A stretch of 64,000 nucleotides of DNA. Source: a virus. Lineage: Duplodnaviria > Heunggongvirae > Uroviricota > Caudoviricetes. The notes beneath the pieces are model-generated. The model searched no databases, was not told the DNA's origin, and was given only the letters and a program-made list of their open reading frames with translations. Position 1 is the stretch's first letter; each line of letters opens with the position of its first letter. Made by a program: the position numbers and the translations under genes. Location of the stretch: positions 225,237 to 289,236 of IMG/VR virus record IMGVR_UViG_3300029288_000059; one strand, given 5' to 3'. This document shows positions 8,854 to 38,020 of this stretch, piece by piece.

Positions 8854-9639
8854 ATGTCATACTTAGGTGAAGTTCCAACAGCATTAAAGTCTATATCCGT
8901 CACATCGAATTATACTATATCAAAGAGAGATAATGGATTACTATTGATATGTAATAATTCGAGTGATATAACGCTATCTACTTCAATCGCTATTGCAAAT
9001 CTTAATGGGTTACTATTACAAATATATAATGCTAATACTGGTACTGTTACTTTTGACCCGTATGGTGCAGAATTAGTTGATTCAAATACTTCTATTACTA
9101 TTGTTTCTGGGCAACGAATAATACTATATAGTAATGGTACTAAATGGTGTGAAATATCAGGAATAATCGTTGATTCGACAATTAGTGGGACTAAACTGGT
9201 AGATGGAACGATAACAGGAACAAAACTGGCAGATGGAACGATAACTAATTCTAATATAGCAGACGGCACAATTACACCATCTAAGTTTTCAACCACATAT
9301 CCATTTACTAATTCATTTACATCAACTGCACAAACATTAGAAACATATACTAATTATCCTATTGCACATGGATTGAGTTCAACCCCAAAGTTAATTAACT
9401 CTTATGCCGTATGTATAACCGCTGATGTCAATTTCACGGTTGGTACTAAATTAGAGTTAGGTTCACATCCTGTTAGGATTGAAGGTACAAATTCATATGG
9501 GTATAATGTTACTAGTGACGCTACTAACTTAAATGTTTGTGTTGGTAGGTTTGGTCCAACAACAATAGATAACGGCAATCATAGTCCGGCTGCTTTGGAT
9601 TTAACTAAATGGCAATTCTACTTTCAGGCGTTTGTATAA
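8854..9639 (+). CDS. Tail fiber-like protein with (S/T)GTKL(V/A)DGTIT repeats.
   Basis: The repeats ISGTKLVDGTITGTKLADGTITNSNIADGTITPSKF are typical of phage fiber and collar repeats. Confidence 0.5.
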   Translation: MSYLGEVPTALKSISVTSNYTISKRDNGLLLICNNSSDITLSTSIAIANLNGLLLQIYNANTGTVTFDPYGAELVDSNTSITIVSGQRIILYSNGTKWCEISGIIVDSTISGTKLVDGTITGTKLADGTITNSNIADGTITPSKFSTTYPFTNSFTSTAQTLETYTNYPIAHGLSSTPKLINSYAVCITADVNFTVGTKLELGSHPVRIEGTNSYGYNVTSDATNLNVCVGRFGPTTIDNGNHSPAALDLTKWQFYFQAFV

Positions 9640-9642
9640 CAC

Positions 9643-10428
9643 ATGAAATTAACATTGATACATGAGAGACCAACCATTAACATTACTTTTTCTACTAATG
9701 AGAAAGTGGAGAACATTAATATGATTACAACAAATATTAAAATGTATAGAGGTGCTGCCAGTCATATTGATGTCTTTATTAAGAACTCGGATAGAAAATC
9801 ACTTAATACTCTAGGTAAAACTATCACCGCACATATGACTTTTTTGGAAAATGAAGATTGTGCATTCGTTAAAGTATTAAATGTTATAGACGAAACAAAG
9901 GGACAATACGAATTAGTATTAGAACGTGGTGAAGTTGATAGTTTAACGCCAGGAAGATATAGAATTGTTTTTACAATTAGGGATTTAAATGATACGGAAG
10001 AAATGTTATATAGTGAGAATGAATATTCTACTAATATTAATGTTGAAATAGTTACTAAGGCATTACCCCAATTTCGTCCATCAACGGTTATTAATAACTT
10101 CCAATTATATAACAATAAGTATTATTCTTCCGCTTATCCAGGTGATATGCAACTAGGATTCTTAGATGGATTCCATACGTGTGCCATGTACTGTACAAAT
10201 TTTAGTGGTAAAGTATGGATTCAAAGTACATTAGAAAATAGTATCCCAACACAAGAAAATGACTGGATTAATTTGCTTATATCATTAACTGGTTCATACT
10301 ATGAATTAACTAATTTCACAGGTATAGAACCATTTAACTTCCAAATCCAATGCCAATGGATAAGATTTGTATATGAACCATCCGTTAATAATACTGGTAC
10401 GATTGATAAGATATTGTATCGTAATTAA
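9643..10428 (+). CDS. Hypothetical structural protein. Its C-terminal domain is shared with the 236..640 product.
   Basis: It lies adjacent to the fiber-like gene and has the same 261-aa length. The C-terminal motif is shared. Confidence 0.4.
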   Translation: MKLTLIHERPTINITFSTNEKVENINMITTNIKMYRGAASHIDVFIKNSDRKSLNTLGKTITAHMTFLENEDCAFVKVLNVIDETKGQYELVLERGEVDSLTPGRYRIVFTIRDLNDTEEMLYSENEYSTNINVEIVTKALPQFRPSTVINNFQLYNNKYYSSAYPGDMQLGFLDGFHTCAMYCTNFSGKVWIQSTLENSIPTQENDWINLLISLTGSYYELTNFTGIEPFNFQIQCQWIRFVYEPSVNNTGTIDKILYRN

Positions 10429-10430
10429 AT

Positions 10431-11036
10431 TTAACCATCCCTACTATGTAAATACGGAATGCAGTGATAATGTTCTCTAGGAATACCCCATTGAACCCCC
10501 GATGACAACATTCGTTCGCTTTTATCACCCCCGTCATCAAATTTATAAGTGAATAATTTTTTATCCTTATATTTTTCAATAAATTTGGTTACTATTGAAT
10601 TGCCTATAAACTCTTGAATTGAGTTGAGACTCTTATCATATGAATCTACGTCATCGGCAATTTCATTCCACGACTTTCCACATCGATGCAACATATCTCT
10701 AAGTTGTTCAAATCGTCTATATTGCTGTTTAGTTTGATAATTCGTTCTATCTAATGGATTGTCTAACCATCGTCTAAACGCATCATATGAATAATCTGAA
10801 ATAAGGCGGTTACTGATATGGTAAGTAATAGGGGTCTGCTTATTCATTAATTCCGTTACTACGTCATTTATAGGTGATGCCGTATCAAATGCAATAAACA
10901 TTTCATCCATATATAAATTACTCTTAATATGGTCACACCAATATTCCTGTGTAGGTTCAACATCAACGGCGATGAGAAATGAACTACTAGAACTATTACT
11001 TACAAAACCAGTTCTTATCTTCATTCTTTCCTCCAA
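10431..11036 (-). CDS. Hypothetical protein, 201 aa.
   Basis: Long ORF with a Ser-run near the N-terminus (GFVSNSSSSSF). Confidence 0.45.
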   Translation of the reverse strand: MEERMKIRTGFVSNSSSSSFLIAVDVEPTQEYWCDHIKSNLYMDEMFIAFDTASPINDVVTELMNKQTPITYHISNRLISDYSYDAFRRWLDNPLDRTNYQTKQQYRRFEQLRDMLHRCGKSWNEIADDVDSYDKSLNSIQEFIGNSIVTKFIEKYKDKKLFTYKFDDGGDKSERMLSSGVQWGIPREHYHCIPYLHSRDG

Positions 11037-11326
11037 ACACGAATACCAACACGTGATTCTTTTTTATTGAGACCAAGAACAGGTACAATTTCTTTAACCG
11101 TCGTATCGTCAATTATATCGACCGAATGTGTTGTAAATTTTGAACCATAACGTTTACTATGACTAGCACACGCCGCCGATAATTTACGAAGTGTTGCAAC
11201 ACGGGTTTCTGTTGTACATTCCACAATAAAGGAATCACCAACTTCCATTGTATTAAATGGATATTTAGCTTTTCGTTGTGTTTTTGGTAATTCAACATTT
11301 TTTTCTACTACTAATGTATCAGTCAT
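11021..11326 (-). CDS. Member of the 'RxWK-module' family, one module. It ends IRVWRKE.
   Basis: The motifs YPF..M.VGDSF... and RVW at the C-terminus are present. Confidence 0.5.
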   Translation of the reverse strand: MTDTLVVEKNVELPKTQRKAKYPFNTMEVGDSFIVECTTETRVATLRKLSAACASHSKRYGSKFTTHSVDIIDDTTVKEIVPVLGLNKKESRVGIRVWRKE

Positions 11327-11367
11327 TTATTTTCTCCTATTTAATTTTAAAACATATATAACAACGA

Positions 11368-12066
11368 TTAGAGTTTCCAAGTACGAATCTTGTACTTATC
11401 AATAACGCGAGTAGTTACTTTAATGCCTTCCATCTTGGCAATATAATATAATCTACCAGCTTCCAATTTACTTAATGTAACACTATCACCCGTTTTCATC
11501 TTAAGTAATAATGTACGGAACGGACTGGAAGTTATCCGTTTGACTTCAGGGATAGGAATGTTACTTTCAATTTTAACATTAGCTGGTAGACTGGGTTCCT
11601 CACCAACATATTTTGGAATGATGTGATTACATGGAGTCACTATAACATCCTTACGAGTTACTGTTGCAATATCACCAATCATTGTATAAGTAAATTTGGT
11701 ATTATTAGTTCTACCCCGACGATAGCACATCTTAGTGAAACGTGCCTTAACTTTGTCACCACGTTCACATTGTTTAATGAGTTTAACATTAAATGTTTCA
11801 CCATTTTTTAACTCATTGAAGGGTAAACGGTCATTGCTTGGATATGTAAGCATTGCCGGTGTAGCAACAACTTGTTTGCCTGTATTAGTAACAATGTATT
11901 GTCCGTTACGAGTACACATTGTATATGTTGTATTATTTCGTTTACCACGACTACCACATAAGTTAATTAACTGCCGATATGTGCGTCTATCACTAGCAGT
12001 TATGTAAAATGATTGTCCTGGGCCTAATGCTTCGAATGGATAATCAGTGTTGATACTACGTGACAT
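11368..12066 (-). CDS. Member of the 'RxWK-module' family, three modules. It ends IRTWKL.
   Basis: Repeated YPFE.LGPGQSF...YRQLINLCGSRGKRNNTTY and IPIP...GDS...RTWKL modules are present. Confidence 0.5.
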   Translation of the reverse strand: MSRSINTDYPFEALGPGQSFYITASDRRTYRQLINLCGSRGKRNNTTYTMCTRNGQYIVTNTGKQVVATPAMLTYPSNDRLPFNELKNGETFNVKLIKQCERGDKVKARFTKMCYRRGRTNNTKFTYTMIGDIATVTRKDVIVTPCNHIIPKYVGEEPSLPANVKIESNIPIPEVKRITSSPFRTLLLKMKTGDSVTLSKLEAGRLYYIAKMEGIKVTTRVIDKYKIRTWKL

Positions 12067-12088
12067 TTATAATCTCCAATATTTAAAA

Positions 12089-12547
12089 TTATGACAATTT
12101 CCAAACTCGAATATACTCATTATCAACCTTATGGGATGTTAATACAATATTAGCATGCCATGCGGCACCAAAAACACGTGGCCTATGTGTTGCGGGAATG
12201 AGAATACTATCACCCTTTTTCATCTTATACAATACGTTTCGATATGAACATCGTTCCGTTGGCATGGGAATGTTCTTTTCAATTACTAAGTCATTACTAG
12301 ATGTAGAAACATTAGTTTGTTTCGTTACTTTCTGTGGGGATGTGGTCCCTTTATTGGTAACGACGTATTGTTCACCGACAACATTAAGTGCATACTTAAC
12401 ATTATTTCGTTTCCCACGACGCTGACATAAGTTAATTAACTGCCGATATACACGTTTATCGCCAGTTTTCCCAACATCAACACTAAACGATTGTCCACTC
12501 ATTAGTGTTTCAAATGGATATTGAGTTAATTTTAATTTCCTACTCAT
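12089..12547 (-). CDS. Member of the 'RxWK-module' family, two modules. It ends IRVWKLS.
   Basis: It contains YPFETLMSGQSF...RVYRQLINLCQRRGKRNNVKY and IPMPTE...KKGDSILI...IRVWKLS. Confidence 0.5.
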   Translation of the reverse strand: MSRKLKLTQYPFETLMSGQSFSVDVGKTGDKRVYRQLINLCQRRGKRNNVKYALNVVGEQYVVTNKGTTSPQKVTKQTNVSTSSNDLVIEKNIPMPTERCSYRNVLYKMKKGDSILIPATHRPRVFGAAWHANIVLTSHKVDNEYIRVWKLS

Positions 12548-12559
12548 ATTACATACTCC

Positions 12560-12829
12560 CTATGCTTTCCAAATCCGAAATCCGCCAGGTACCTTGCGTG
12601 TTCTAAGTTTAATACCTGTCTTTTTACCTAAGTTTAAACATAATGTTCGTTCGGCATTAGTTTTTACCAAAAACGAATCACCGGTACGCAATCCAGGTAA
12701 TGCCGTTCGAAACTTTAAACTTTTGGTGTTATAAACACCTGGTGTAATTGGTACACTGTGTTCAATAACAATCGAACTAAAATCAAATTTTGTCTCCATT
12801 GTTTTATACCTTCCAAACCCGAAAACCAT
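12560..12829 (-). CDS. Member of the 'RxWK-module' family, one module. It ends FRIWKA.
   Basis: It contains VPITPGVY...RTGDSFLV...FRIWKA. Confidence 0.5.
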   Translation of the reverse strand: MVFGFGRYKTMETKFDFSSIVIEHSVPITPGVYNTKSLKFRTALPGLRTGDSFLVKTNAERTLCLNLGKKTGIKLRTRKVPGGFRIWKA

Positions 12830-13406
12830 TATCCGCCATTTTAATTTTTATCTTCATAGCATTACGATACGCGACTAAATAGAATTGGCGTGCGAATTTA
12901 TAATCACTAACTACAAACGAGTCACCGATTACCATCTTATTAATAATTGCCAATACCTTATCCGTATCAGTCCGGTTACGTGATGGTGTTGGGACGCCGT
13001 GTTCAATCTTAATATCATCAAAATTAAACGAACCAGTTTGTACTGATTGCACTTTATTACGTTTAACCGATGGTGTTTTATGTGTTTTGATTGCAGGTAA
13101 TGGAATACCTGTCTCAATTACCAATTCACCGACTGAAGGAATATTGTGTGTTGTTGGCACATTCCCAGTACTAATGGCATATTTAGAGGCATTAGCTGTT
13201 GGTTTTGGTTTATTATAATCTTCTACTAAACGAACTTCGACGTGTGTGGGAGTCATCTTATAAGAGAATTTCTTATTCAATGCCTTTCCACGCCGATAAC
13301 AAATATTAGCGAATCGTTGTTCAACTTTGAAACGATTATCATACTCATTAAGGGGAACACTAAATGCTTCCCCTACTGTTAAGTCTTTGAATGGATAATC
13401 TAACAT
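12804..13406 (-). CDS. Member of the 'RxWK-module' family, two modules. It ends FRVWKV.
   Basis: It contains YPFKDLTVGEAF...FANICYRRGKALNKKFSY and VPTPS...IGDSFVV...FRVWKV. Confidence 0.5.
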   Translation of the reverse strand: MLDYPFKDLTVGEAFSVPLNEYDNRFKVEQRFANICYRRGKALNKKFSYKMTPTHVEVRLVEDYNKPKPTANASKYAISTGNVPTTHNIPSVGELVIETGIPLPAIKTHKTPSVKRNKVQSVQTGSFNFDDIKIEHGVPTPSRNRTDTDKVLAIINKMVIGDSFVVSDYKFARQFYLVAYRNAMKIKIKMADNGFRVWKV

Positions 13407-13569
13407 TTTAAAATCTCCTTATTAAGTTATCTACATATATTAAATTATAATAAAATTAACGATATGTCAATAGGGGAATTTATTAAATTATTTTAAAATT
13501 ATACATGGACTTTCAATTAATATATGTTATACTTAACTTATAAACACCATAATAAAGGGGGTAACTCAA

Positions 13570-13830
13570 ATGACAAACGTAAATACGCAAGATAGTATTA
13601 AATTATATAAACAAATTACTAAAATTATCGGTAATACTGCTGATTACCGTAATAAGTATGCCACCTGTGCTACATATAAGTGGTATGCTAAAGGTAAAAG
13701 TAAAAAAGTTGCTAAAAAATTAAAATTTTATATAGATATAGGAGTTGTTAAGATTAACAAAGATTGTATCAATGGATGTAAAAGTATTATTTTACGCGTA
13801 GAACAAGATTTCTACATCAGTAAAAAATAA
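13570..13830 (+). CDS. Small early protein, 86 aa, driven by an early-promoter cassette.
   Basis: A conserved TATACT-TAACTTATAAACA element sits 40 nt upstream. The RBS is AAAGGGGG. Confidence 0.45.
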   Translation: MTNVNTQDSIKLYKQITKIIGNTADYRNKYATCATYKWYAKGKSKKVAKKLKFYIDIGVVKINKDCINGCKSIILRVEQDFYISKK

Positions 13831-13904
13831 TACAAATATAAAATAATGATGAATGGGCATTTAGTATACTCATTCATCATATATAATCTAAATTTTTAAA
13901 TTGG

Positions 13905-14672
13905 TCACAGTTTCCAAATGCGATATTGGTATGGTTCTTTATTGTTAATGCGGCGTGTGGTAATGGCAATGTTGTGACGTCTCAGTAACTTAGTTTGTGC
14001 ATTGTATTTCAACCTGCCTACTATAACATAGGAATCACCGGAATTCATATTTTGTAAAGTATCCAATATTATCTTATTACTAGCCGACCATTTATTCTGT
14101 GTACTGTACACATGATATCCTTTCATGTGTACCACGAGTATATTATGTTCAATTGGGACAATAAACGTATTATTGTCAATTACTTCATCTTTAATATCAG
14201 TTCTTAAGTCTTTAACTTTCCATACTCGAAAATTACCCATATCTAATTTCGTATACGTAATTTTAATATTATTTTTTCGAGTATATACTACAATCCCCAC
14301 CCTGTCCGTATTATTAACAATAATACTATCACCCTCACCCATTTTATTAAATATGTGAATATACTTATTTGGTCTACCTGTACCACGCTTCATTGGTGGG
14401 ATTGGACATTTAGATTCAATCGTTTTCAATAACTGTTCTATTCGTTCCCATTTGTCATATACTGTAATATGTAACCTATTACCTTGCCGTTCATAAGATA
14501 TTTTGTTATAAGTAGAACGCGTAATCGCATATAAACGACGGATTAGTGTTGGTAATTCACTCTCATCATTAAAGATAATATCAAACTCTTTACCAGGAAC
14601 AAATAACTCCATTGGTAATTTCTTTGCATATTCATATTGTACTGGTACTTCCAATAATTCATTAGTCGTCAT
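13905..14672 (-). CDS. Member of the 'RxWK-module' family. It has an N-terminal extra domain plus two modules, and ends YRIWKL.
   Basis: It contains PIPPMKRG...GEGDSIIV...FRVWKV and a second module ending YRIWKL. Confidence 0.5.
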   Translation of the reverse strand: MTTNELLEVPVQYEYAKKLPMELFVPGKEFDIIFNDESELPTLIRRLYAITRSTYNKISYERQGNRLHITVYDKWERIEQLLKTIESKCPIPPMKRGTGRPNKYIHIFNKMGEGDSIIVNNTDRVGIVVYTRKNNIKITYTKLDMGNFRVWKVKDLRTDIKDEVIDNNTFIVPIEHNILVVHMKGYHVYSTQNKWSASNKIILDTLQNMNSGDSYVIVGRLKYNAQTKLLRRHNIAITTRRINNKEPYQYRIWKL

Positions 14673-14923
14673 GTTACGAAAATCCTTATTAATATCTGCT
14701 TACTAAAACTTATAACAGACTACCGTCATAGTCAATATCTAAAATAATCACAACTAAATGGAATAGCATATTATTAAGTTTGAAGATACGTAATATTCAC
14801 TTGTTTGGTAAATATTATGTATCAATCCATCCAGTCACGATTATGTTGTATAGTCGTAATAAAGATGACGACATAAAATATATCGTCATCTTTAATGTCC
14901 CATATATGACTTAGTTAATTAGA

Positions 14924-16078
14924 TTATTCACAAGGACAATAGTCATTAATTAAGTTATTAATGACTGGTAAATTATCAGTATTGAATGTAGAACCAATGG
15001 CAGTTTTAAGCCATTCTGGTTCTATACTTAAGAACTGTCCTGCTGTTTTAACTGGAGTAGATGATACTGTAATCTTAATCTCATACACATTATTACTACA
15101 TTCAATCCCCAATTTACCCATACAATCAACTAATGGTTTATTATAATCCTGTATATAACTAGCAAGATGTCTAATCATGTCATCATCTGTTAAGCCATAA
15201 ACATCTTTTATTGGTTGTACATAATTGTTAATAGATGGAGTATTATCTTGTTGGAATGATTCCTTAAAAGTTGTATAAACTTTTTTATTAGTTAAGGAAT
15301 TGCATTGTTCTCTAATTTGTTTCAACCGTTTTTTACATAATTCACGTAAGAACGTTTTATCACGATTACCACCTAAAAACTTCTTAACTTTAAAGTATTC
15401 TTCCGCCACATCATATAAATGTCTACCTATTGTATCATTTAACGTGCCACTCTCATTTAAATGACGAGTCATTGCTTTCGCAATCATCAAATAATTACAA
15501 GGCATCTTAAAACGTTCTTTACCTTGTTGTATATAGATTTCTTCAATATTACGGGAACGAGCCCCATGTGTTTCTTCTGTAATGGGGATAGTATGTATAA
15601 CAGTTAGTTTGGCATTCTCTAATTCCCATAGTGAGCGTTTCCGTGACTTAGGAATCATAGCTTCCATTAACATCCAATTATTAAGAACTTTATCAAACCC
15701 TTCACTCATTTCCGATTTATCCTTACGAGATATATCTAAGAACTTTTGTTGTGGTGAAGTACGTGAAAATAGTTTAGTTGTAAACTTCAAACCAAATACA
15801 TTTGAGATTAATCTCATACGTTTAATCATATCTAACAACGTACTCTCTTTAATATTAGAAGTCTTATTAAGATACATTAAGACTTCATACTCTTCTGTAT
15901 ATTTCTTAGTTTGTGGGATTCGTATGAGAATATCATTTGGTGTAATATAAAACCAACGTGCATCCTTAGGAGAATATATACCTTTACCGTCCTTATCATA
16001 TAACTTAATACTATTATCAAAGTCTGGTATAGAAGCAATCTCATATAATTGTTCTGCTAGTTGTTCACTTGATGACAT
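14924..16078 (-). CDS. Hypothetical protein, 384 aa, downstream of the large terminase gene.
   Basis: Long ORF with no recognised motif. Confidence 0.45.
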   Translation of the reverse strand: MSSSEQLAEQLYEIASIPDFDNSIKLYDKDGKGIYSPKDARWFYITPNDILIRIPQTKKYTEEYEVLMYLNKTSNIKESTLLDMIKRMRLISNVFGLKFTTKLFSRTSPQQKFLDISRKDKSEMSEGFDKVLNNWMLMEAMIPKSRKRSLWELENAKLTVIHTIPITEETHGARSRNIEEIYIQQGKERFKMPCNYLMIAKAMTRHLNESGTLNDTIGRHLYDVAEEYFKVKKFLGGNRDKTFLRELCKKRLKQIREQCNSLTNKKVYTTFKESFQQDNTPSINNYVQPIKDVYGLTDDDMIRHLASYIQDYNKPLVDCMGKLGIECSNNVYEIKITVSSTPVKTAGQFLSIEPEWLKTAIGSTFNTDNLPVINNLINDYCPCE

Positions 16079-16116
16079 CTCATTATCCTCATTAATAACA
16101 TTTACTATATTTATTG

Positions 16117-17916
16117 TTATCTATTATAACCGTAACTGTTTCCAATAATGAATACGGGTGTATAGTCTTCATCGTCCTCGATTGTTTCCTTGAATTGGAT
16201 ATCAATAGTTTCATCCATCTTCATTAATACACCCAACATTCGAACACATAACAAGGAAGCGGATACTGCATCATCATGTGTACCTGTCTTACCACTATAA
16301 CTAGAGCCATTAACAATATATAAACTTAATTGGCGAGTTAGTTCTTTTGAACTAATAATCAATTTTTGTTTTTCCACCAAACTCTTTAATTGAGCACAGG
16401 CTTCTAACTTAGTTTGATTAGTTGTACAGTAACCACGTCTAAATCTTTTATTTTTCTTTTTAGGCTCAGACATAAATACACCAGGGAAGTTATCTTCTCC
16501 AATTTGTGATATGACAACTAAGGCTGCTTCACCCAATGTATTATTTTCAACTGTCCAATATAATTCCGACGAATCTGTTCGCGTCTTTATCGAATCATGA
16601 ATTTTTAATAGGATTTGTCTTAAGGTTTTAATTTGTGTTGGTATATCTGCATGATTGTTCAACCATTCGGCAACTTGTTTCATACCCGGAACTTCAAATA
16701 CTTGAATACAAGAAAAATCCTCACCCTGTCCCAATGACGGGTCTAATGCTACTAAATACGTCATACCTTGTTTAGGTTCAGAATACCACCTTACTTCGCC
16801 TTGTTTACATATTGGGGATATTTTATCCACGTTTGCAATAATTTGTTTCATACACATATTATCAATTAATGATTTATCTAATCCGACAAATTCACAATTA
16901 TATTCACGTTCAAACTTGGCATCACTACCCATCTTCGCACGTTCTGCAAGTTCCCACTTTTCATCACGGTCAGGATGTACTCTCCATGTCGCTTTGTAAA
17001 ATTTAAACCCATTAATTCCAGGTCCATTATTAGGTATTTCATTACCACTACCATCAATGAAAGCCTGTGATTCTCTACATATCTTAGCAAATAAATCATA
17101 TTCTGTATTAGGGGTGGATGTAATAATCATCTTCCCTCGTGTCGTTGCCAATGTAGGAGTAATTGACATATAGAATTCTTCTTGTAATTGGATAGATTTA
17201 AGAAATGCGAATTCATCACAATAAACGATTGCAGGTGATAAACCACGTCCTGCATCACTAGTAGTAGCACGTGATATTAAGACTGAACCAGTATCGAACC
17301 TCATAGAACTCTTGTTATTCTCAATTAAACCCGCCTTTATAAAATCAGGCATATTTTCATAACAATACTTAATACGTTGCATAATCTCTAATGCTTGATT
17401 TTGCTTATTGGCAACAATTAGTATGTCTTTATCCTTATGAAACATTGCATACCATAATAGATATAAACTGGTTACGGTTGTATTATGACTCAATATACCA
17501 TTGGTATAGTATAAGTGATTATTATGATTGTTTTCATCCAATGTATTCACTTCAACACAATACATATGAACCTTAATATGTAAGGGACTACAACTAACAA
17601 CTTCTTCTATATCACCATCAGTAACAATTAAATCACCCATACATAGAGTATCAACATAAACTTGATGATATGTATTATTAATAACGATATGCTTATCTGC
17701 ACATAGTAATGTATGGTTGGTTGTTTTAAGTTCCCATAAATCATAAGGGACTGTCCTAACTACTTTTGATACTATGCCAAAATCAGATTGAAAATGAACA
17801 TCTTTTACATGGGTGAACTTTTTAACATCATTCGTGATTGTATATGTTTTACGATGGTCTTCATCTAAAATATACAATAGACCTTTAATTAAAGTTCGTA
17901 TATATTGTTTAAACAT
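16117..17916 (-). CDS. Terminase large subunit, C-terminal piece. Roughly 153 aa of the C-terminal intein fragment (IntC, carrying intein blocks B, F and G and ending ...GILSHN) are fused to the C-extein starting TTVTSLYLLWYAMFHKDKD.
   Basis: Walker B and nuclease motifs (IVYCDEFAF) are present. The extein resumes exactly at the Walker A Thr (T4 gp17 has [24 protein letters not shown]). Intein motifs found are block B (LKTTNHTLLCADKHIV), ...LCMGDLIV, and blocks F/G (KVHMYCVEV...NHLYYTNGILSHN). Confidence 0.8.
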   Translation of the reverse strand: MFKQYIRTLIKGLLYILDEDHRKTYTITNDVKKFTHVKDVHFQSDFGIVSKVVRTVPYDLWELKTTNHTLLCADKHIVINNTYHQVYVDTLCMGDLIVTDGDIEEVVSCSPLHIKVHMYCVEVNTLDENNHNNHLYYTNGILSHNTTVTSLYLLWYAMFHKDKDILIVANKQNQALEIMQRIKYCYENMPDFIKAGLIENNKSSMRFDTGSVLISRATTSDAGRGLSPAIVYCDEFAFLKSIQLQEEFYMSITPTLATTRGKMIITSTPNTEYDLFAKICRESQAFIDGSGNEIPNNGPGINGFKFYKATWRVHPDRDEKWELAERAKMGSDAKFEREYNCEFVGLDKSLIDNMCMKQIIANVDKISPICKQGEVRWYSEPKQGMTYLVALDPSLGQGEDFSCIQVFEVPGMKQVAEWLNNHADIPTQIKTLRQILLKIHDSIKTRTDSSELYWTVENNTLGEAALVVISQIGEDNFPGVFMSEPKKKNKRFRRGYCTTNQTKLEACAQLKSLVEKQKLIISSKELTRQLSLYIVNGSSYSGKTGTHDDAVSASLLCVRMLGVLMKMDETIDIQFKETIEDDEDYTPVFIIGNSYGYNR

Positions 17917-17965
17917 TCAACTCAATCCTATTAACTACTTTAATATATTTACAAATTGGGATATT

Positions 17966-18385
17966 ATGTACAGAGCACTAGATCCATATCATGTCAATAT
18001 ACGACAATCATCGGGACTTTCAGATGTTTCAGATGGTATTATACGACGGGGTGAAGTTAGTCTCTTCCATTGTGGGTTAACCAAATTACCCATCTTTAAA
18101 TATATAAGTGGTAATCTTGATATTAATAGCAATCTATTAACCAACCTTAACGGCTGTCCTATTTACGTTGGTGGTAATTTATATTGTAGTGATAATCTAT
18201 TATCTAATTTAGATGGTGGGCCACTCTTTGTTTATGGTAATTACTTCTGTGGGCACAATCAATTAATAAGTTGGGATGGTGGGCCCCAGTACGTGAAAGG
18301 TAAATTAATATGTAATAATAATCGTTCCTGGATACTTCACAACCCCACCAATATTTTTATGGGTAAAGGATGTTCAATTGGTTAG
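17966..18385 (+). CDS. LRR-like repeat family protein (MYRALDPYHV...). It lies inside the gap of the fractured terminase gene.
   Basis: It contains 22-aa repeats (LTNLNGCPIYVGGNLYCSDNLLSNLDGGP...). The start was set at the family-type N-terminus at 17966. The longer track ORF, beginning at 17813, overlaps the terminase gene. Confidence 0.55.
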   Translation: MYRALDPYHVNIRQSSGLSDVSDGIIRRGEVSLFHCGLTKLPIFKYISGNLDINSNLLTNLNGCPIYVGGNLYCSDNLLSNLDGGPLFVYGNYFCGHNQLISWDGGPQYVKGKLICNNNRSWILHNPTNIFMGKGCSIG

Positions 18386-18758
18386 AAATTTAGAACCATA
18401 TATTGAACCATATATTGAACCAACTCCTGAATGGAACACAGACGCAATTCATCTGTTTAATGGATTTACTTATGTAATAAAAAGAGGAGGTTATTGTCTT
18501 GGATGGATGAATTTGGGTGAACTTCCTTCGTCTTTCAAATATGTAAGTAAGACATTTAATTGTAGCAATAATCAACTAACAACGTTAAAGGGATGTCCTA
18601 TTTATGTAGGTGGTAATTTCTGGTGTGAACGTAATCAATTAACCAGTTTAAATAATTGTCCTGTTTATATTGGTAACAATTTTATATGTCGAGACAATAC
18701 ATATAAACTCATCCCACCTAAAGAAGTTACTATAATCGGGGAGTTATATAATGATTAG
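18378..18758 (+). CDS. LRR-like repeat family protein (MVRNLEPYIEPYIEP...).
   Basis: It has the family N-terminus and repeats such as NNQLTTLKGCPIYVGGNFWCERNQLTSLNNCPVYIGNNF. An 8-nt overlap links it to the upstream copy. Confidence 0.55.
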   Translation: MVRNLEPYIEPYIEPTPEWNTDAIHLFNGFTYVIKRGGYCLGWMNLGELPSSFKYVSKTFNCSNNQLTTLKGCPIYVGGNFWCERNQLTSLNNCPVYIGNNFICRDNTYKLIPPKEVTIIGELYND

Positions 18759-18823
18759 AAATTTAGAACCATATATTATTAATCATATCACTTGTATAAT
18801 GGGTCTATATCGATAATTTAATC
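18758..18823 (+). pseudogene. Truncated 5' fragment of an LRR-family gene (MIRNLEPYII...), running into the 108-bp tandem repeat.
   Basis: ATGATTAGAAATTTAGAACCATATATT matches the family N-terminus, then diverges and reaches a stop after 21 codons. Confidence 0.4.
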
Positions 18824-18993
18824 AACAAACGTTCCAAGTAATCTACTACTTTTTGTTTTAAATTTAAGTGAAAGACGTTAGATATTATTAATCATATCAC
18901 TTGTATAATGGGTCTATATCGATAATTTAATCAACAAACGTTCCAAGTAATCTACTACTTTTTGTTTTAAATTTAAGTGAAAGACGTTAGATA
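18778..18993. repeat. Two-copy direct tandem repeat with a 108-bp unit.
   Basis: The unit attaatcatatcacttgtataatgggtctatatcgataatttaatcaacaaacgttccaagtaatctactactttttgttttaaatttaagtgaaagacgttagatatt occurs twice back to back. Copy 2 encodes the last 26 codons and stop of the terminase N-piece ORF. Each unit contains a TGTATAAT extended -10-like element. Confidence 0.85.
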
Positions 18994-19282
18994 TTGTATC
19001 ATACTTCTTATTAATGGTGATTATTGTATTACCAATTACACATTTTCCCAACTGGCGAGCACACATTATGCAACTGTTTTGATTCTTATGTATTACTTCG
19101 ATTAAGTCATGTACATAGTCATAAACTTGATATTTTGTCTTGCCAGCTTTATTAACATAACAATAATTCTTCATAAAATATTCGGGGTCGTTTTTACATC
19201 TTTTAAACTCAATCAATTCCTCTTGAGACATAGGAGTAGACGAGTATGGTGGTTTAACCTTAGAAACTATTGGTTCATCCAT
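18914..19282 (-). CDS. Terminase large subunit, N-terminal piece. An 80-aa N-extein ending ...CARQLGK (Walker A) is fused to a short N-terminal intein fragment (IntN) starting CVIGNTIITINKKYDTISNVFHLNL.
   Basis: The extein matches T4 gp17 (PEYFMKNYCYV, then RQLGK). Residue Cys+1 followed by V-I-G-N-T-I-I forms intein block A. The remainder of the ORF is encoded by the 108-bp repeat. Confidence 0.75.
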   Translation of the reverse strand: MDEPIVSKVKPPYSSTPMSQEELIEFKRCKNDPEYFMKNYCYVNKAGKTKYQVYDYVHDLIEVIHKNQNSCIMCARQLGKCVIGNTIITINKKYDTISNVFHLNLKQKVVDYLERLLIKLSI

Positions 19283-19529
19283 TATATTTCACCTTGAGTT
19301 CTTTAATCATCTTATTAAATTTTCTCTTATCTTTACGTCTTACAGTAGAATAGAATTGTTTTTTAACTTCTTCTGCTTCATCTTGTGGTAATGCTTTATC
19401 CACCAAATCAAAATAATTTATCAATGAATCAAGTAAATGGTCTGATAAACTTTCTATTAGTCTAATATCATTCTTTTCTGCGTATACAGAATCTAACTCT
19501 GTTAATAAGCTACGATAACTAGACATCAA
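19275..19529 (-). CDS. Hypothetical protein, 84 aa, immediately upstream of the terminase N-piece.
   Basis: It overlaps the terminase N-piece start by 8 nt. Because of its position it could be a small terminase-associated protein, but no motif supports this. Confidence 0.35.
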   Translation of the reverse strand: MMSSYRSLLTELDSVYAEKNDIRLIESLSDHLLDSLINYFDLVDKALPQDEAEEVKKQFYSTVRRKDKRKFNKMIKELKVKYNG

Positions 19530-19615
19530 ATTACCCCTTAAATTAACTATTATATTATTTATGTATTTGTGAATTAGGATAAATTATAATAAATAGTTTA
19601 AAGGGGATTACTTGG

Positions 19616-20104
19616 ATGACTGATACAAAACAAGAACTAACAAAATTAATGTCAAAGTTAAAAACCAATGCTAAAAAGTTGGAAGACTATAACTATGAAC
19701 ATAAGCATGCTATCATATCCAAAAATGAAAAAAAGATTAATGAGTTAAGAACCAAGATTTCCAAACTAACTATTAAGAACAAGAAACTTACAAATAAGAT
19801 TGAAGAATTATTATTAGTAGTAACGATTGATGGTACTAATATTAATGAAGTAATCTATCAAATATGGAAATCAGACGAGCATTTGTTTGTATGGTCCAAT
19901 GAACTCGGATTACATATATGGACAAGTGATACATCTAAAGTTACCAATGAAGCAACAGATGACCCTACCTCTTCTAAAATATTATTACCCCAAAATGATA
20001 TTTCAATTGAGAATGCAGAAATTATCATGCAAGGATGTTTAGATTTTTTAAGCAAATCAAACATAACCGTTAAGATGAGAAACGGTAAATTAATTTTTAA
20101 ATAA
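19616..20104 (+). CDS. Hypothetical coiled-coil protein.
   Basis: The RBS is AGGGGATTACTTGGATG. The N-terminal half is lysine-rich and helical. Confidence 0.45.
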   Translation: MTDTKQELTKLMSKLKTNAKKLEDYNYEHKHAIISKNEKKINELRTKISKLTIKNKKLTNKIEELLLVVTIDGTNINEVIYQIWKSDEHLFVWSNELGLHIWTSDTSKVTNEATDDPTSSKILLPQNDISIENAEIIMQGCLDFLSKSNITVKMRNGKLIFK

Positions 20105-20548
20105 TATAGTATTCAAAACGTTGATATTAACGTCTCCTAGGTGGGTACCGTAATACCTGTACCAATTTAACTTCATTTGTATTCTATCTACTATGCGTGC
20201 TTGTATGACGTTAAAATCGGTAGTTGTTGGAGCCCATAGTCTAAAGAACTGTGAATCCAAATCCTCAGTATCATGTAATAATGAAAAAGGTTTAAAATTA
20301 TAATGACGATTAACTAATTCAATTTGTATATCTCTATGTCGTTCTGATAAGTATAGAAGTTTATTATACCAAAACTTCATATGCCCTTTACCAAGAGTAA
20401 AGGTTAGTGGGATATCACTTAGTACTTCATCCACGGTATGCGTTTTAAGACTACGTCTAAGTGCCGGGACAATCATCTTCAATTCACGAAATTCAGCGAA
20501 TAGATGTTGGTCTGTTAATAACTTCGGTGATACTAAATTACATCTCAT
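20090..20548 (-). CDS. denV: Endonuclease V, a pyrimidine-dimer DNA glycosylase (T4 DenV family).
   Basis: The motifs CNLVSPKLLTDQHLFAEFRELK, FTLGKGHMKFWYNKL and WYRYYG match T4 endoV ([42 protein letters not shown]). Confidence 0.85.
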   Translation of the reverse strand: MRCNLVSPKLLTDQHLFAEFRELKMIVPALRRSLKTHTVDEVLSDIPLTFTLGKGHMKFWYNKLLYLSERHRDIQIELVNRHYNFKPFSLLHDTEDLDSQFFRLWAPTTTDFNVIQARIVDRIQMKLNWYRYYGTHLGDVNINVLNTILFKN

Positions 20549-20717
20549 GTTTGATTCTTTTACATTTTGTTAATTTGGTCAGTGTGATACACTAACAGGG
20601 AAATTGATTGTTGTAAATGGTGAAATAAGACCGTAATTATACTATTTCCAATTACTATTACATTCAATGGGTGGCAATCCATATCAATACTGTGATAGTT
20701 AGTGGATAACTCAATAG

Positions 20718-21194
20718 TTATCGATTAAAGAAACAACCACCTATCTTAATTCCTTTAGGACGTGGTAATTTTATTTTATTATCACTACAATATAAACTAC
20801 CACCAACATATATTGGACAACCTTTTAAACTGGTTAGTTGGTTATTCTGACAAATTAAATTTCCACCTATACGGGTAGTACATCCTTTTAGACTGGTTAA
20901 TTGGTTATAACCACAATTTAAACCACCACCTATATAAGTAGCACAACCCTTCAAATTTGTTAATTGGTTATCACCACAAATTAAATCACGACCTATATAT
21001 GTAGGACAACCTTTTAAACTTGTTAATTGGTTATAACTACAATCTAATCCACCACCTATATACTTGAAATGTGGTAACATTAGTAACCCAGTAGATAAAT
21101 CTACATCACCACGTACGATGATATTTCTATTAAATATACGAAAAACATCAGCTCTATATGGTTTATATTCAATTGGTTCCAAAGTCCTATACAT
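20718..21194 (-). CDS. LRR-like repeat family protein (MYRTLEPIEY...), four or five repeats.
   Basis: It contains LDCSYNQLTSLKGCPTYIGRDLICGDNQLTNLKGCATYIGGGLNCGYNQLTSLKGC... Confidence 0.55.
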   Translation of the reverse strand: MYRTLEPIEYKPYRADVFRIFNRNIIVRGDVDLSTGLLMLPHFKYIGGGLDCSYNQLTSLKGCPTYIGRDLICGDNQLTNLKGCATYIGGGLNCGYNQLTSLKGCTTRIGGNLICQNNQLTSLKGCPIYVGGSLYCSDNKIKLPRPKGIKIGGCFFNR

Positions 21195-21786
21195 TCATCG
21201 TCACCATCGTATTATTATGTTGTTCGAGTAGTATTAAATTTAACTGTACTACGATTGTTTTTGCATAGCTATATGCGTGAGCTTTTTTAAAAAAGTACGA
21301 ATTATCACACGGCTTAATCCATATCTCTTTTTCTACATCACACCATTGTTTTCCAATTAGATGTTTCTTACCTGGGCGTATTATAGCTAAGAACATTGCC
21401 ATTTGGCCTATATTAGTAACTACCATTCGTTGTAATAAATCATAATGTTTATTAATTTGTGTTAGTTTCAATACATAATCCTTATTTTTTAACAACGTCC
21501 AATCGGGTTCATTATCCGCTAATACCCGTAATACTTCTCTATCTGTTATATCTTTATAGATAGTGTTATGTAATAAATCAATCTTTATATGACCTAACTC
21601 TTCAGCTTTTTTATAATCTAATGAACATAACCCCGTTATTGGGTCGGTGGGGACATTATGAAAGTATACACCCGATATATGTCGTTCTATATCATTATTA
21701 AACATTGACGCATTGATATGTTGTAATTTACTTAATAAGTCTTCTCTATTTTTCATATCAATATCAATATCTGGTAGATGTGACAT
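21187..21786 (-). CDS. Miniaturised DnaE (DNA polymerase III alpha)-like protein, 199 aa. It retains PDIDID, H.GGV...P, G.IKIDLL, ALFRPG-like and KAHAYSYA motifs in DnaE order but lacks the intervening segments.
   Basis: Segment alignment by eye to E. coli DnaE: PDFDVDF / HAGGVVIAPTKITDFAPL / GLVKFDFLGLRTLT / IALVALFRPGP / [25 protein letters not shown]. Confidence 0.45.
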   Translation of the reverse strand: MSHLPDIDIDMKNREDLLSKLQHINASMFNNDIERHISGVYFHNVPTDPITGLCSLDYKKAEELGHIKIDLLHNTIYKDITDREVLRVLADNEPDWTLLKNKDYVLKLTQINKHYDLLQRMVVTNIGQMAMFLAIIRPGKKHLIGKQWCDVEKEIWIKPCDNSYFFKKAHAYSYAKTIVVQLNLILLEQHNNTMVTMNV

Positions 21787-22499
21787 TATATACTCCTCAA
21801 TAAAGAAGCTATATCACCGAAAGATGGCGTACATTTAATCTTCACACCCCATGCCGCGTCATTAAGATAATCCCGAAGATAATACTTAAAATCTTCCGAT
21901 AGATTGGCTATCATAGTATTACCTAACTTAGTCGTGTATAAAAACCACGGACTAATGCGTCCCATCTTAACAAGATTACCTAAGTACATACCATATACTA
22001 CCGTATACACTTTATCCACTTCGATATTATTTTTAGTAGCTATCTTCTGTAATGTTTCCAATGAGCGAATTATTGCATCAGTAGGAAGTTCTTTATATAT
22101 GTAATCTAATAACCATTCTTTATAACAATCGTCATTACACCAAGTCTTATACTTAAAATGATTATCCATTGCCCAGTTTATATATTGCATTATGTCGGGA
22201 CAATGAATATTGAATAAGTATTCTGCTACTTTTGTATAGTGAGTATATTCTCTACCTTTTATAAACTTATCTAACAAGTCCACATCAAACTTATAATGCA
22301 TATAGACCTTTTTATTTGATTCTTGCCACATATAAAATGCGAGTTTGGCAACATTAGTATCCTTATTATCATACCGTGTCTTATACATACAAGTATGATT
22401 TAAGAACGACTTCTCCCTCGTGAATTTTTTACCACAGAACTTACAGACATTCTTTATATTGTTTTCTGAGTTTGACTCTGTCTTTATCATCGATTGCAT
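21786..22499 (-). CDS. Hypothetical protein with an N-terminal C2H2-like zinc finger (CKFCGKKFTREKSFLNHTC).
   Basis: Cys/His spacing. Confidence 0.45.
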   Translation of the reverse strand: MQSMIKTESNSENNIKNVCKFCGKKFTREKSFLNHTCMYKTRYDNKDTNVAKLAFYMWQESNKKVYMHYKFDVDLLDKFIKGREYTHYTKVAEYLFNIHCPDIMQYINWAMDNHFKYKTWCNDDCYKEWLLDYIYKELPTDAIIRSLETLQKIATKNNIEVDKVYTVVYGMYLGNLVKMGRISPWFLYTTKLGNTMIANLSEDFKYYLRDYLNDAAWGVKIKCTPSFGDIASLLRSI

Positions 22500-24027: not shown

Positions 24028-24507
24028 TTAACTACTGAATTTGCCAATAATATTAACCCCATCAGGACGAAGTAATTTTATTTTATTATTCTTACAATAT
24101 AATCTACCACCTATATATGTAGCACAACCATCTAAACTAGTTAATTTGTTATCGTTACAATATAAACCACCACCCACACTAGTAGCACAATATCTTAAAC
24201 TAGTTAATTTGTTATTACCACAATATAAATCACCACCAACATATATAGGACAACCTTCTAAACTTGTTAGTCGGTTATAATGACAATATAAATCACCACC
24301 AACATATATAGGACAACCTTTTAAACTTGTTAATTGTTTGTTACAAATACTTAAGCTATGACTTATATACTTGAAATTTGGTAATGTTTTTAATGGTAAC
24401 ATATCCAAATCTATATCTATATAACCACGTACGATGGTATTTCTATCAGTCAATCTAACAGTTAAATTAGCTTCAACAATGTTATATGGTTCTAAATTCC
24501 TAACCAT
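24028..24507 (-). CDS. LRR-like repeat family protein (MVRNLEPYNIVEANLTV...).
   Basis: Five repeats. The start overlaps the stop of the topoisomerase subunit gene. Confidence 0.55.
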   Translation of the reverse strand: MVRNLEPYNIVEANLTVRLTDRNTIVRGYIDIDLDMLPLKTLPNFKYISHSLSICNKQLTSLKGCPIYVGGDLYCHYNRLTSLEGCPIYVGGDLYCGNNKLTSLRYCATSVGGGLYCNDNKLTSLDGCATYIGGRLYCKNNKIKLLRPDGVNIIGKFSS

Positions 24508-27838: not shown

Positions 27839-28129
27839 CTAGGAGTTCATAAATCCACCCCGAATCTTAACTCTTTTAGGGCGAGATAATTTAACTTTGT
27901 TATTATAACATTTTAAATTACTACCTATATAAGTAGCACAACCTTCTAAACTAGTTAATTGGTTATCAAAACAATATAAATCACCACCTACATACTTGAA
28001 ATGTGGTAACTTGAGTAAATTCATCCTACCATAATAAACATCACCACGTACTATAATATTTCTATCGAATATACGAACGTTACCAACATTATATAATTCA
28101 TATTCAATCGGTTCCAAGGTTCTATACAT
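27839..28129 (-). CDS. LRR-like repeat family protein (MYRTLEPIEYELY...), two repeats.
   Basis: It has the family N-terminus and C-terminus (NKVKLSRPKRVKIRGGF). Confidence 0.55.
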   Translation of the reverse strand: MYRTLEPIEYELYNVGNVRIFDRNIIVRGDVYYGRMNLLKLPHFKYVGGDLYCFDNQLTSLEGCATYIGSNLKCYNNKVKLSRPKRVKIRGGFMNS

Positions 28130-28532
28130 TTATAAATTCACCACCTATCTTAACTCCTTTAGGACGAGATAATTTAACTTTGTTACCATAACAATATAAA
28201 CTATCACCTATATATGTAGCACACCCATCTAAACTGGTTAATTGATTATACCTACAATATAAAGTACTACCTATATAAGTAGGACAATATTCTAAACTTG
28301 TTAGGCAATTACGGTCACAAACTAACCTACCTACATATATAGGGCAACCTTTTAAACTCGTTAGTTTGTTATTACGACAATTAAAATACCTACCTACATA
28401 CTTGAAATGAGGTAACGTGGTTAGTTTCCTGTTAAATAAATCTACATTGCCCCTAGTAATTATATTGCTATCAGTCAATCTAACAGTTAAATTAGATTTA
28501 ACAATGTTATATGGTTCTAAATTTCTATTCAT
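28122..28532 (-). CDS. LRR-like repeat family protein (MNRNLEPYNIVKSNLTV...).
   Basis: Four repeats. An 8-nt overlap links it to its neighbours. Confidence 0.55.
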   Translation of the reverse strand: MNRNLEPYNIVKSNLTVRLTDSNIITRGNVDLFNRKLTTLPHFKYVGRYFNCRNNKLTSLKGCPIYVGRLVCDRNCLTSLEYCPTYIGSTLYCRYNQLTSLDGCATYIGDSLYCYGNKVKLSRPKGVKIGGEFINV

Positions 28533-29193
28533 TTATAAATTCACCCCGAATCTTAATTCCTTTAGGACGCGATAATTTAAGGTTGCTGTGATTACAATCT
28601 AGATAACCACCTATACTAGTAGCACATCCTTCTAAATTTGTTAATTGGTTATAACGACAATATAAATCACCATTTATACGGACAGGACAACCCTTTAAAC
28701 TGGTTAATTGGTTATAACTACAATCAAAAACTCCACCTATACTAGTAGCACAACCCTTTAAACTTGTTAATTGATTATGACTACAATCTAGATTACCACC
28801 TATACTAGTAGCACAATATTTTAAACTAGTTAGTTGGTTATTATAACAATATAAACCACCACCTATATATGTAGCACAACCCTTTAAACTAGTTAATTGG
28901 TTATTACCACAATCTAACCTACCACCTATATAAGTAGCACAACACTCTAAACTTGTTAAATGGTTCTTATTACACCATAAATAACCACCTATATATGTAG
29001 GACATCCTTCTAAACTTGTTAATTGGTTAAAACTACAATCGAAATCGCCACTTACATACTTGAAATGAGGTAATGTATGTAGGTTACTGTCAGATAAACG
29101 TGCATTACCTCTTATAATAATATTATTATAAGTAGACTGAATCCTAATGCACCAATCATCATTCGTATTATAGGGTTCTAAACTACGATACAT
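28525..29193 (-). CDS. LRR-like repeat family protein (MYRSLEPYNT...), eight repeats. It is the longest copy.
   Basis: It contains tandem xxNQLTSLKGCATxIGGxLxCxx repeats. Confidence 0.55.
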   Translation of the reverse strand: MYRSLEPYNTNDDWCIRIQSTYNNIIIRGNARLSDSNLHTLPHFKYVSGDFDCSFNQLTSLEGCPTYIGGYLWCNKNHLTSLECCATYIGGRLDCGNNQLTSLKGCATYIGGGLYCYNNQLTSLKYCATSIGGNLDCSHNQLTSLKGCATSIGGVFDCSYNQLTSLKGCPVRINGDLYCRYNQLTNLEGCATSIGGYLDCNHSNLKLSRPKGIKIRGEFINE

Positions 29194-37733: not shown

Positions 37734-38020
37734 TTACTCCTATACTCAGTACCAAAAACCATCAATGGTCCTATGGCTGAGCACAAACATAGTTGATATG
37801 GTGGGAACATCCCGCGAACGTACTTAATATCGGGCAAGTAAGAAATACCCACTAAATCACGATGTCGTAGTATTAATTTAATAGTATTGGAATCCTCATT
37901 CCAATATGATGGTAAACGTGAAGACGATGAATATATAAATTTATTAATATATGGTTCTAATGCTCTAGCAACCAAATGTAACTCCACAGTATAAATTACC
38001 TATATATGTAGGATAACCAG
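37730..38020 (-). pseudogene. Decayed LRR-family copy. It keeps an N-terminal '..ALEPYINK..' remnant and out-of-frame repeat remnants.
   Basis: The ORF 37730..37987 carries a family-like N-terminus. The 37988-38020 region encodes LAGYPTYIGNLYCG in another frame. Confidence 0.4.

Follow-up and report, generated by a model that had tools for sequence, protein, structure and literature searches.

How does a phage gene as essential as that of the terminase large subunit (TerL) come to be divided by about 1 kb of DNA with genes on the opposite strand, and did these genes bring themselves there? This question is raised by a 64,000-nucleotide stretch of a Caudoviricetes genome (IMG/VR record IMGVR_UViG_3300029288_000059, positions 225,237 to 289,236; the whole stretch is hereafter called the window), in which the two parts of TerL are encoded by separate open reading frames (ORFs). 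The spacer between them (17917-18913, 997 bp) contains two opposite-strand genes of a leucine-rich repeat (LRR) family, here called g1 and g2, the stub of a third family member and a tandem duplication. An initial annotation had proposed that this content reflects either a mobile or invasive LRR family or a recombination hotspot. We hold with moderate confidence that the region is the spacer of a fractured TerL gene, that the LRR genes are passengers in it and that one of its ends was duplicated by slippage.

The two ORFs (18914..19282, 122 aa, and 16117..17916, 599 aa) are both on the - strand and the host gene is cut exactly at the predicted intein. When residue 80 of the 122-aa ORF was joined in silico to residue 146 of the 599-aa ORF, a 534-aa TerL was obtained that aligned without gaps and colinearly to contiguous TerL proteins over the junction RQLGK/TT (ARQLGK/TTVTSLYLLWYAMF versus GRQLGKTTLAAGYLLWYAMF; a slash marks a junction here and below). 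The premise that TerL is cut by a split intein holds because the spliced product aligns to contiguous TerL proteins without a gap. In tblastn searches the C-extein was 44-45% identical to TerL of Rak2/121Q-type jumbo phages. The split is located near the N terminus of the putative intein, leaving a short N-terminal part (IntN) and a long C-terminal part (IntC) with block B, represented by the TxxH-like stretch TTNHTLL. The ORF encoding IntC and the C-extein was 49% identical to the homologous ORF of a related phage, L002, and the IntN tails of three relatives (L002, L086 and L089) are homologous to that of the window and end at the same place. These findings indicated that TerL is split in the Walker A loop by a putative, atypically split intein with a short IntN and a long IntC. 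TerL would be made as two polypeptides of 122 aa and 599 aa, which predicted protein trans-splicing rejoins; annotation pipelines would otherwise call such a TerL truncated or missing.

In the fractured genes described by Dassa, London, Stoddard, Schueler-Furman and Pietrokovski (2009, NAR; PMC2677866), a split intein is accompanied by a same-strand free-standing homing endonuclease (GIY-YIG or Vsr-like) in the gap. As the initial annotation had pointed out, LRR-family genes are found there in the window, and no remnants of an endonuclease were detected in the window gap by tblastn with the gap ORFs of relatives (best E = 0.19). Both g1 and g2 were called as genes by independent pipelines and both matched a hidden Markov model (HMM) of the 11-member family of the window (6e-48 and 1e-45, respectively), confirming that two intact family members are present; they overlap by 8 nt. 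An identical type of 8-nt stop/start overlap, ATGnnTAG, joins tandem family members at 28122-28129, 28525-28532, 18378-18385 and 18751-18758, the last of these leading into the stub. The stub was identical at 25 of 26 nt (18752-18777) to the 5' end of g2 (18379-18404) and its motif was found at the 5' ends of other paralogs in 7 matches, compared with 0.03 expected by chance. Given the shared overlap and the match to the start of g2, the stub, which had been described as the 5' end of a third copy, is simply the start of the next unit in an LRR array.

The gap was then compared between related phages, as the initial annotation had recommended. Among 80 TerL relatives in IMG/VR, 75 had a contiguous TerL, four had no N-terminal match in the DNA examined and only L001 and L002, which are one 457-kb phage, had a split gene; further relatives with a split TerL were found by searching with IntC. 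The gap of L002 is 2.1 kb and contains a same-strand 352-aa DUF559/Vsr-like ORF (Pfam 21.8 bits versus a cut-off of 20.6; PHROG homing endonuclease, 1.3e-7), that is, the same-strand free-standing endonuclease of fractured genes that the window does not have, together with an opposite-strand 306-aa ORF of unknown function. The gaps of L086, L089 and L099 are empty and 36-79 bp long. In L092 (2-3363) and L093 the contigs end inside a gap of at least 3.5 kb that holds a same-strand AAA_13 ATPase gene (2e-107; PADLOC candidate defence PDC-S06, 8.9e-129) and an opposite-strand NTP_transf_8 nucleotidyltransferase gene (3.5e-56), and the gap of L091 (~2 kb) has the same ATPase/nucleotidyltransferase module with the ATPase decayed to fragments of 45 aa and 77 aa (L091 6192-7792). 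An unannotated 365-aa same-strand ORF that overlaps the IntC start occupies the ~1.05-kb gap of L100-L102; its resemblance by eye, in L100, to a GIY-YIG or T5orf172-like nuclease had no Pfam or PHROGs support. Opposite-strand occupants are thus not unique to the window. Since the homologous gaps of relatives hold different things, the gap is a cargo site of highly variable content and no ancient fixed arrangement, and the view of it as a recombination or cargo hotspot is supported by these sequence comparisons.

In several relatives TerL was found in three pieces, with a second atypically split intein at Walker B (LLY/C ... THQ/CDE; L086 4323-10527, L091 5654-10714 and P0018-P0022) that has an IntN of ~30 aa and Cys+1; this site is uninterrupted in the window (IVYCDEFAF). 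In L086 the Walker B gap measures 3.5 kb; besides a single same-strand ORF it contains eleven genes on the opposite strand, of which one encodes an RNA ligase and another has a weak deaminase-family match.

A broader interpretation, to which we are drawn only tentatively, is that in this jumbo-phage clade the split-intein TerL gap was seeded by an endonuclease and serves accessory genes in general as a landing pad, with fast turnover and still unstable, an instability that the copy-number-variable microhomology duplication described below would display. It draws on gap content that ranges from LRR genes to the PDC-S06 candidate defence ATPase with its nucleotidyltransferase and the block with the RNA ligase gene and the weak deaminase-like match. 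If this were true, split inteins would not only permit but also favour the gain of genes within an essential gene. The locus and its relatives suggest that gaps of split inteins act as accessory-gene hotspots in a core phage gene, which would matter for phage genome plasticity, and the clade-wide cargo in multiply fractured terminase genes, which includes a candidate defence gene, is the more interesting lead from this locus.

The same comparison bears on an alternative that we regard as unlikely, namely that the LRR genes never inserted into a small gap and that the TerL halves are instead becoming uncoupled by larger rearrangements, with an LRR array adjoining one of the breakpoints. Genomic uncoupling after loss of the endonuclease is the step IV proposed by Dassa et al. 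(PMC2677866), LRR paralogs are located nearby at 20718..21194 and 24028..24507, and in relatives the gap can be 2 to 3.5 kb long and hold many unrelated genes. However, one inversion between inverted paralogs would flip a TerL half, whereas both halves are still on the - strand in their original order and only ~1 kb apart, and the signature at the junction is a short microhomology and not paralog homology. A single inversion between LRR paralogs as the origin of the locus was rejected on these geometric grounds.

The duplication at the far end of the spacer was found to be an exact tandem repeat with a period of 109 nt that spans 18773-18995 (2.04 copies, 100% identity, TRF score 446). It had been described as an exact two-copy repeat of 108 bp at 18778-18993, of which the exactness stands and the length is corrected. 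The sequence ATATT is present at all three unit boundaries (18773-18777, 18882-18886 and 18991-18995), and no other copy of the unit was found in the window. The last 26 codons and the stop codon of the IntN ORF lie in copy 2, in agreement with the earlier description, and the IntN protein is unchanged by the duplication because the first stop codon is kept. The sequence of the copy-to-copy junction is GTTAG/ATATTATTAATC, i.e. ...GACGTTAG/ATATTATTAATC, and the one-copy arrangement consists of ...CCATATATT, one unit and GTATCATAC. An exact 12-nt micro-repeat of 2.5 copies (GAACCATATATT), encoding EPYIEPYIEP, is located at 18393-18422 at the 5' end of g2; it also has the form of a slippage product and is built on the same CCATATATT sequence as the junction between stub and repeat.

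Public assemblies differed in the copy number of this unit. A 272,293-bp metagenome contig (ENA ERZ27247363, k141_2513218) was 100% identical to the window over the 21.8 kb compared apart from one indel, in that it has one unit only (in the extracted segment, L082, 1-9144 corresponds to window 28025-18882 and 9031-21800 to window 18886-6117). The window was also identical to two short Logan contigs from SRR8542065. One of them, which comes in from the LRR side, stops at window 18802 after exactly 30 nt of copy 1. On this basis an end at 18966 was predicted in advance for the contig from the TerL-N side; that contig, retrieved via an 83-aa neighbour gene, was found to stop at exactly 18966, 30 nt short of the first base beyond the array. 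With k = 31, which we take to be the value used in the Logan assembly of SRR8542065, these two ends are those expected if the reads contain the copy-to-copy junction; a pure one-copy population would give no branch. The one-copy MEGAHIT k141 contig in turn implies reads that span the stub, one unit and the sequence upstream in IntN, a stretch of 116 nt. From the assemblies, molecules with one copy and with two or more copies both appear to exist and the duplication does not appear to be fixed; it is a small but clean population marker. The other end of Logan contig L098 is located at window 20954, inside the LRR gene 20718..21194, and internal LRR repeats appear to break short-k assemblies of this genome.

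These assembly data also make it improbable that the 109-bp duplication is an artefact in the source record of the window, the genome itself having just one copy. The one full-length contig of this phage in public data does carry a single copy; a search of IMG/VR for the copy-to-copy junction gave nothing, and neither did a search of the JGI metagenome contigs for 30 nt from the interior of the unit. Yet the contig ends at 18802 and 18966 fit a copy-to-copy junction in the reads, and junction k-mers cannot be invented by a de Bruijn assembler. The 5-nt ATATT at the boundaries is a slippage signature and argues against an artefact, since untrimmed joining of overlapping contigs is not expected to leave such a microhomology. 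In the search for a two-copy source, g1 was carried only by the ENA and Logan contigs; a third large contig with the locus was hinted at, was not reproduced in repeat searches and was probably an index duplicate.

The T4 late promoter is TATAAATA, which is resembled by a sequence found in the window, TAAATATA. The 8-mers around TAAATATA were concentrated upstream of genes, with ATAAATAT in 10 upstream regions (12 occurrences in total). For the pattern TAAATA[TA], 22 of the 76 hits in the window were intergenic and at most 150 nt upstream of a same-strand start, with intergenic DNA making up ~9% of this AT-rich window (32% GC). In the packaging region, three consecutive units (the 384-aa gene, IntC/TerL-C and the 83-aa/TerL-N operon) have the pattern upstream, with its first base exactly 35 nt from the start codon. 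These motif starts on the - strand are 16113, 17951 and 19561, the TerL-N counterpart lying at ~19554-19561; 19 other sites are known in the window. This suggests that each TerL half has its own candidate late promoter, which would explain the freedom of the intervening DNA to vary.

The repeat unit itself gave little sign of regulatory function. An extended -10-like element had been reported in each repeat unit, but the sequence concerned, TGTATAAT, reads TTGTATAAT, in which the TG is one base off the TGnTATAAT pattern, and TATAAT occurs 240 times in the window, as for a chance match; with no promoter enrichment, the promoter reading of TGTATAAT was rejected. Sigma-70-like sites were not enriched (33 found versus 26.8 +/- 4.2 expected), the RNA structure of the repeat unit was no better than that of shuffled sequence on either strand (z ~0) and no terminator-like site was found in the unit. 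It is therefore very doubtful that TerL is regulated by the opposite-strand LRR genes, by the duplicated IntN tail or by both, be it by antisense or convergent transcription affecting the timing or balance of the two halves or by a promoter located in the repeat. The arrangement would allow it, in that each unit carries a perfect TATAAT and the repeat stretch lies where the LRR genes and the TerL-N/IntN gene run towards each other, their stop codons being 155 bp apart (46 bp in the one-copy contig); but apart from the negative results just given, relatives work with gaps of 36-79 bp and a version with one copy exists.

The LRR family is represented in the window by 11 intact paralogs, all on the - strand except g1 and g2. 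The proteins consist of an N-terminal domain (MYRxLEPY...LPHFKYVGG), two to nine repeats of 21 residues each (NQLTSLKGCPxYVGGxLxC) and a C-terminal tail (KLSRPKGxKIGGxFxN). Two paralogs passed the Pfam LRR_4 cut-off of 27 bits (20718..21194 with 29.8 bits and 28525..29193 with 40.8 bits); g2 matched LRR_4 weakly (E = 1) and g1 did not match it, and both are tied to the LRR_4-positive paralogs through the family HMM. An AlphaFold model of g2 (pLDDT 83, pTM 0.76) showed short strands at regular spacing, consistent with a predicted solenoid of stacked beta-strand repeats like that of solved LRR domains, and its top Foldseek matches in the PDB were all LRR domains (IpaH, YopM and SspH1; probability up to 1.0, with weak E-values of 0.035-0.3). 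The encoded proteins are likely protein-binding factors; neither g1 nor g2 had a PHROG match, no PADLOC match was found for g1, g2 or the 222-aa paralog, and a literature search on the function of the family gave nothing useful. A ten-gene array of the family is present in another viral contig, L094.

Truncated family members are not confined to the TerL gap, as at least two more degenerate copies were found on the - strand at ~37745-37975 and ~38340-38650, one of them comprising only the N-terminal domain with no ATG and the other having an SRSLEPY N-terminus and decayed repeats. The sequences thus point to a family of small solenoid proteins that evolves by birth and death. An unannotated 199-aa ORF (21187..21786) ends in a ATGTATAG stop/start overlap with the LRR gene 20718..21194 (window 21187-21194), as between LRR genes, which suggests translational coupling or that the 3' end of this ORF is derived from an LRR array junction.

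Neither g1 nor g2 had the properties of a mobile element. No other paralogs are as diverged: amino-acid identity to the remaining nine is 41-54% over the N-terminal 75 residues and DNA identity at most 77% over local alignments of 129-278 nt, in a comparison for near-identical copies that covered 64 kb of the 272-kb genome. Pfam, PHROGs and PADLOC revealed no nuclease or recombinase domain in either of them, no terminal inverted or direct repeats or target-site duplication were found around the LRR insert besides the 109-nt duplication, and no family members were found in the DNA around the other fractured TerL genes (L002, L086-L093 and L099-L102). That the LRR genes are themselves mobile or invasive, target the gap and take the niche of the homing endonuclease is the least probable of the explanations considered here, because, although the family has expanded to at least 11 copies in 64 kb, only the gap copies lie on the + strand and a truncated copy lies at the junction, the genes lack nuclease, recombinase and transposase domains as well as flanking repeats, have no near-identical donor within the window, are absent from the DNA fetched around the other loci and form arrays that resemble ordinary tandem duplication with translational coupling. 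Of the two possibilities raised in the initial annotation, the hotspot agrees with the variable gaps of relatives, the ATATT microhomology and the difference in copy number, and the mobile family does not agree with these data. The LRR genes are passengers, and no part played by them in splicing or in moving themselves could be demonstrated.

The history of a fractured gene with passenger genes and a slippage duplication might have been as follows. A free-standing endonuclease would have split an intein in Walker A of TerL, a state still seen in L002, and the endonuclease would then have been lost in the lineage of the window. A fragment of an LRR tandem array, with two genes and 27 nt of a third, would have entered the gap the other way round, illegitimate recombination at the ATATT microhomology being the probable way in which it was joined; at its right junction either the fragment was inserted at ATATT or a deletion cut a longer array short at this point. 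Slippage between ATATT copies that flank a 104-nt segment (109 nt apart) would finally have duplicated the 3' end of IntN in part of the population. Each half appears to have its own late-type promoter-like element, and expression of TerL would then be independent of what the gap contains. What the sequences show directly is the anatomy, the colinear spliced TerL, the difference in copy number and the varied gap content of relatives; trans-splicing, the promoters, the sequence of events and what the LRR proteins do are inferred.

Several observations weigh against this interpretation. The IntC ORF had no Pfam intein match and a sequence search against solved structures gave no significant intein match, so that the intein is assigned from its boundary residues, from colinearity and from homology with other split TerL loci. 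The candidate late promoter motif TAAATA[TA] is only ~3-fold enriched in AT-rich intergenic DNA, and a promoter for the LRR genes was not identified. The copy-number comparison is based on contigs, so the single-copy contig might be the minority or the majority haplotype, and ERZ27247363 and SRR8542065 may come from one sample or from two; no paper naming SRR8542065 was found. No close relative was found (best IntC match 59% identical in the protein database, best IMG/VR TerL 49%), and therefore the order and age of the events cannot be reconstructed; blastn against 50,697 phage records likewise gave only a 127-nt TerL match. Finally, g1 and g2 are old and diverged, and the insertion could long predate the deletion that formed the stub.

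The features of the locus are listed in the table.

Features of the fractured TerL locus, with positions in the window
Feature	Position	Strand	Basis
TerL C-extein, 454 aa + stop	16117..17481	-	Pfam Terminase_6N 4.5e-10; tblastn
Putative IntC, long C-terminal intein half, 145 aa, ends ...ILSHN then Thr+1	17482..17916	-	ORF list, homology, alignment
Divergent spacer between g1 start and IntC start, 49 bp, carries TAAATATA on the - strand at 17944-17951	17917..17965	.	Motif analysis
g1, LRR-family gene, 139 aa, most diverged member, several motif cysteines replaced	17966..18385	+	ORF list, family HMM, paralog comparison
g2, LRR-family gene, 126 aa, TTG start	18378..18758	+	ORF list, family HMM, AlphaFold model
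5' stub of third LRR-family gene, 27 nt, ATGATTAGAAATTTAGAACCATATATT	18751..18777	+	Match to g2 start; family motif; stop/start overlap
Copy 1 of 109-nt unit, non-coding duplicate, missing from otherwise identical ENA contig	18773..18881	.	TRF, ENA, Logan contig ends
Copy 2 of 109-nt unit: 3' end of IntN coding sequence, stop codon, 32 nt downstream	18882..18990	.	TRF and self-comparison
Putative IntN, short N-terminal intein half, 42 aa, first residue Cys, + TAG stop at 18914-18916	18914..19042	-	ORF list, alignment, homologous tails
Third ATATT, microhomology bounding the duplication	18991..18995	.	TRF array extends to 18995; sequence read
TerL N-extein, 80 aa, ends in Walker A residues RQLGK	19043..19282	-	ORF list; in-silico spliced TerL colinear with contiguous TerLs

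Two genes upstream of TerL-N, a Pyr_excise gene (T4 endonuclease V/DenV-like pyrimidine-dimer glycosylase; Pfam 8.6e-12) is located at 20090-20548 on the - strand, and an opposite-strand 162-aa coiled-coil-like ORF lies between this gene and TerL-N. Pfam searches with six neighbouring ORFs of the window gave nothing significant.

With regard to known systems, the LRR family resembles the short (20-22-residue) bacterial LRR domains of the IpaH, SspH and YopM effectors in its 21-residue repeats, the Foldseek matches of g2 and the LRR_4 scores of two paralogs. It differs from them in the very small size of its proteins (~100-220 aa), which carry neither an E3 ligase nor another effector domain; in addition, cysteines abound in the repeat motif (LTSLKGCPxYVGGxLxC), the genes form phage-encoded tandem arrays and the fold E-values are 0.035 or higher. 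The duplication corresponds to a microhomology-mediated (slippage) tandem duplication, with two exact copies arranged head to tail between 5-nt direct repeats and a copy number that differs between assemblies of the same genome; the only notable points compared with an ordinary event of this kind are the doubling of the 3' end of an ORF with no change in the protein and the location at a rearrangement junction.

The closest published inteins are GOS-TerL and AceL-TerL, for which PMC11766414 gives an IntN of 25-37 aa and an IntC of 104-115 aa and, in a table, Cys at position +1. The host protein is also the terminase large subunit, the IntN of the window is likewise very short (42 aa) and its IntC long (145 aa), whereas, as compared by published description only, the window intein has Thr at +1 and is inserted in Walker A (GK/T). 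The Cys+1 Walker B intein of the relatives P0018-P0022 is closer to the AceL/GOS-TerL type than is the Walker A intein of the window. The atypically split TerL intein of the window, with its Walker A site and Thr+1, would join a class that is valued for protein labelling.

The arrangement as a whole was compared with the fractured genes of Dassa et al. (PMC2677866). In those loci, which include one terminase, a conserved phage gene is cut into two nearby ORFs by a split intein, and the terminase example has an unusual split point and a long C-terminal intein part, as in the window. The canonical Vsr-like gap endonuclease is present in the relative L002 and not in the window gap and, in contrast to the published loci, in which all coding regions are on one strand, the window gap is occupied by members of an LRR multigene family on the opposite strand. 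In the model of Dassa et al., invasion by an endonuclease splits the intein, the endonuclease can be lost in step III (as in gp41-7) and the halves may become uncoupled in step IV; by analogy, the state of the window would lie between steps III and IV. The locus is in our view a modest new variant of the arrangement described in 2009, and it documents a stage for which there has been little prior evidence, in which the gap left by the endonuclease is filled by unrelated and even opposite-strand genes while the essential gene still works.

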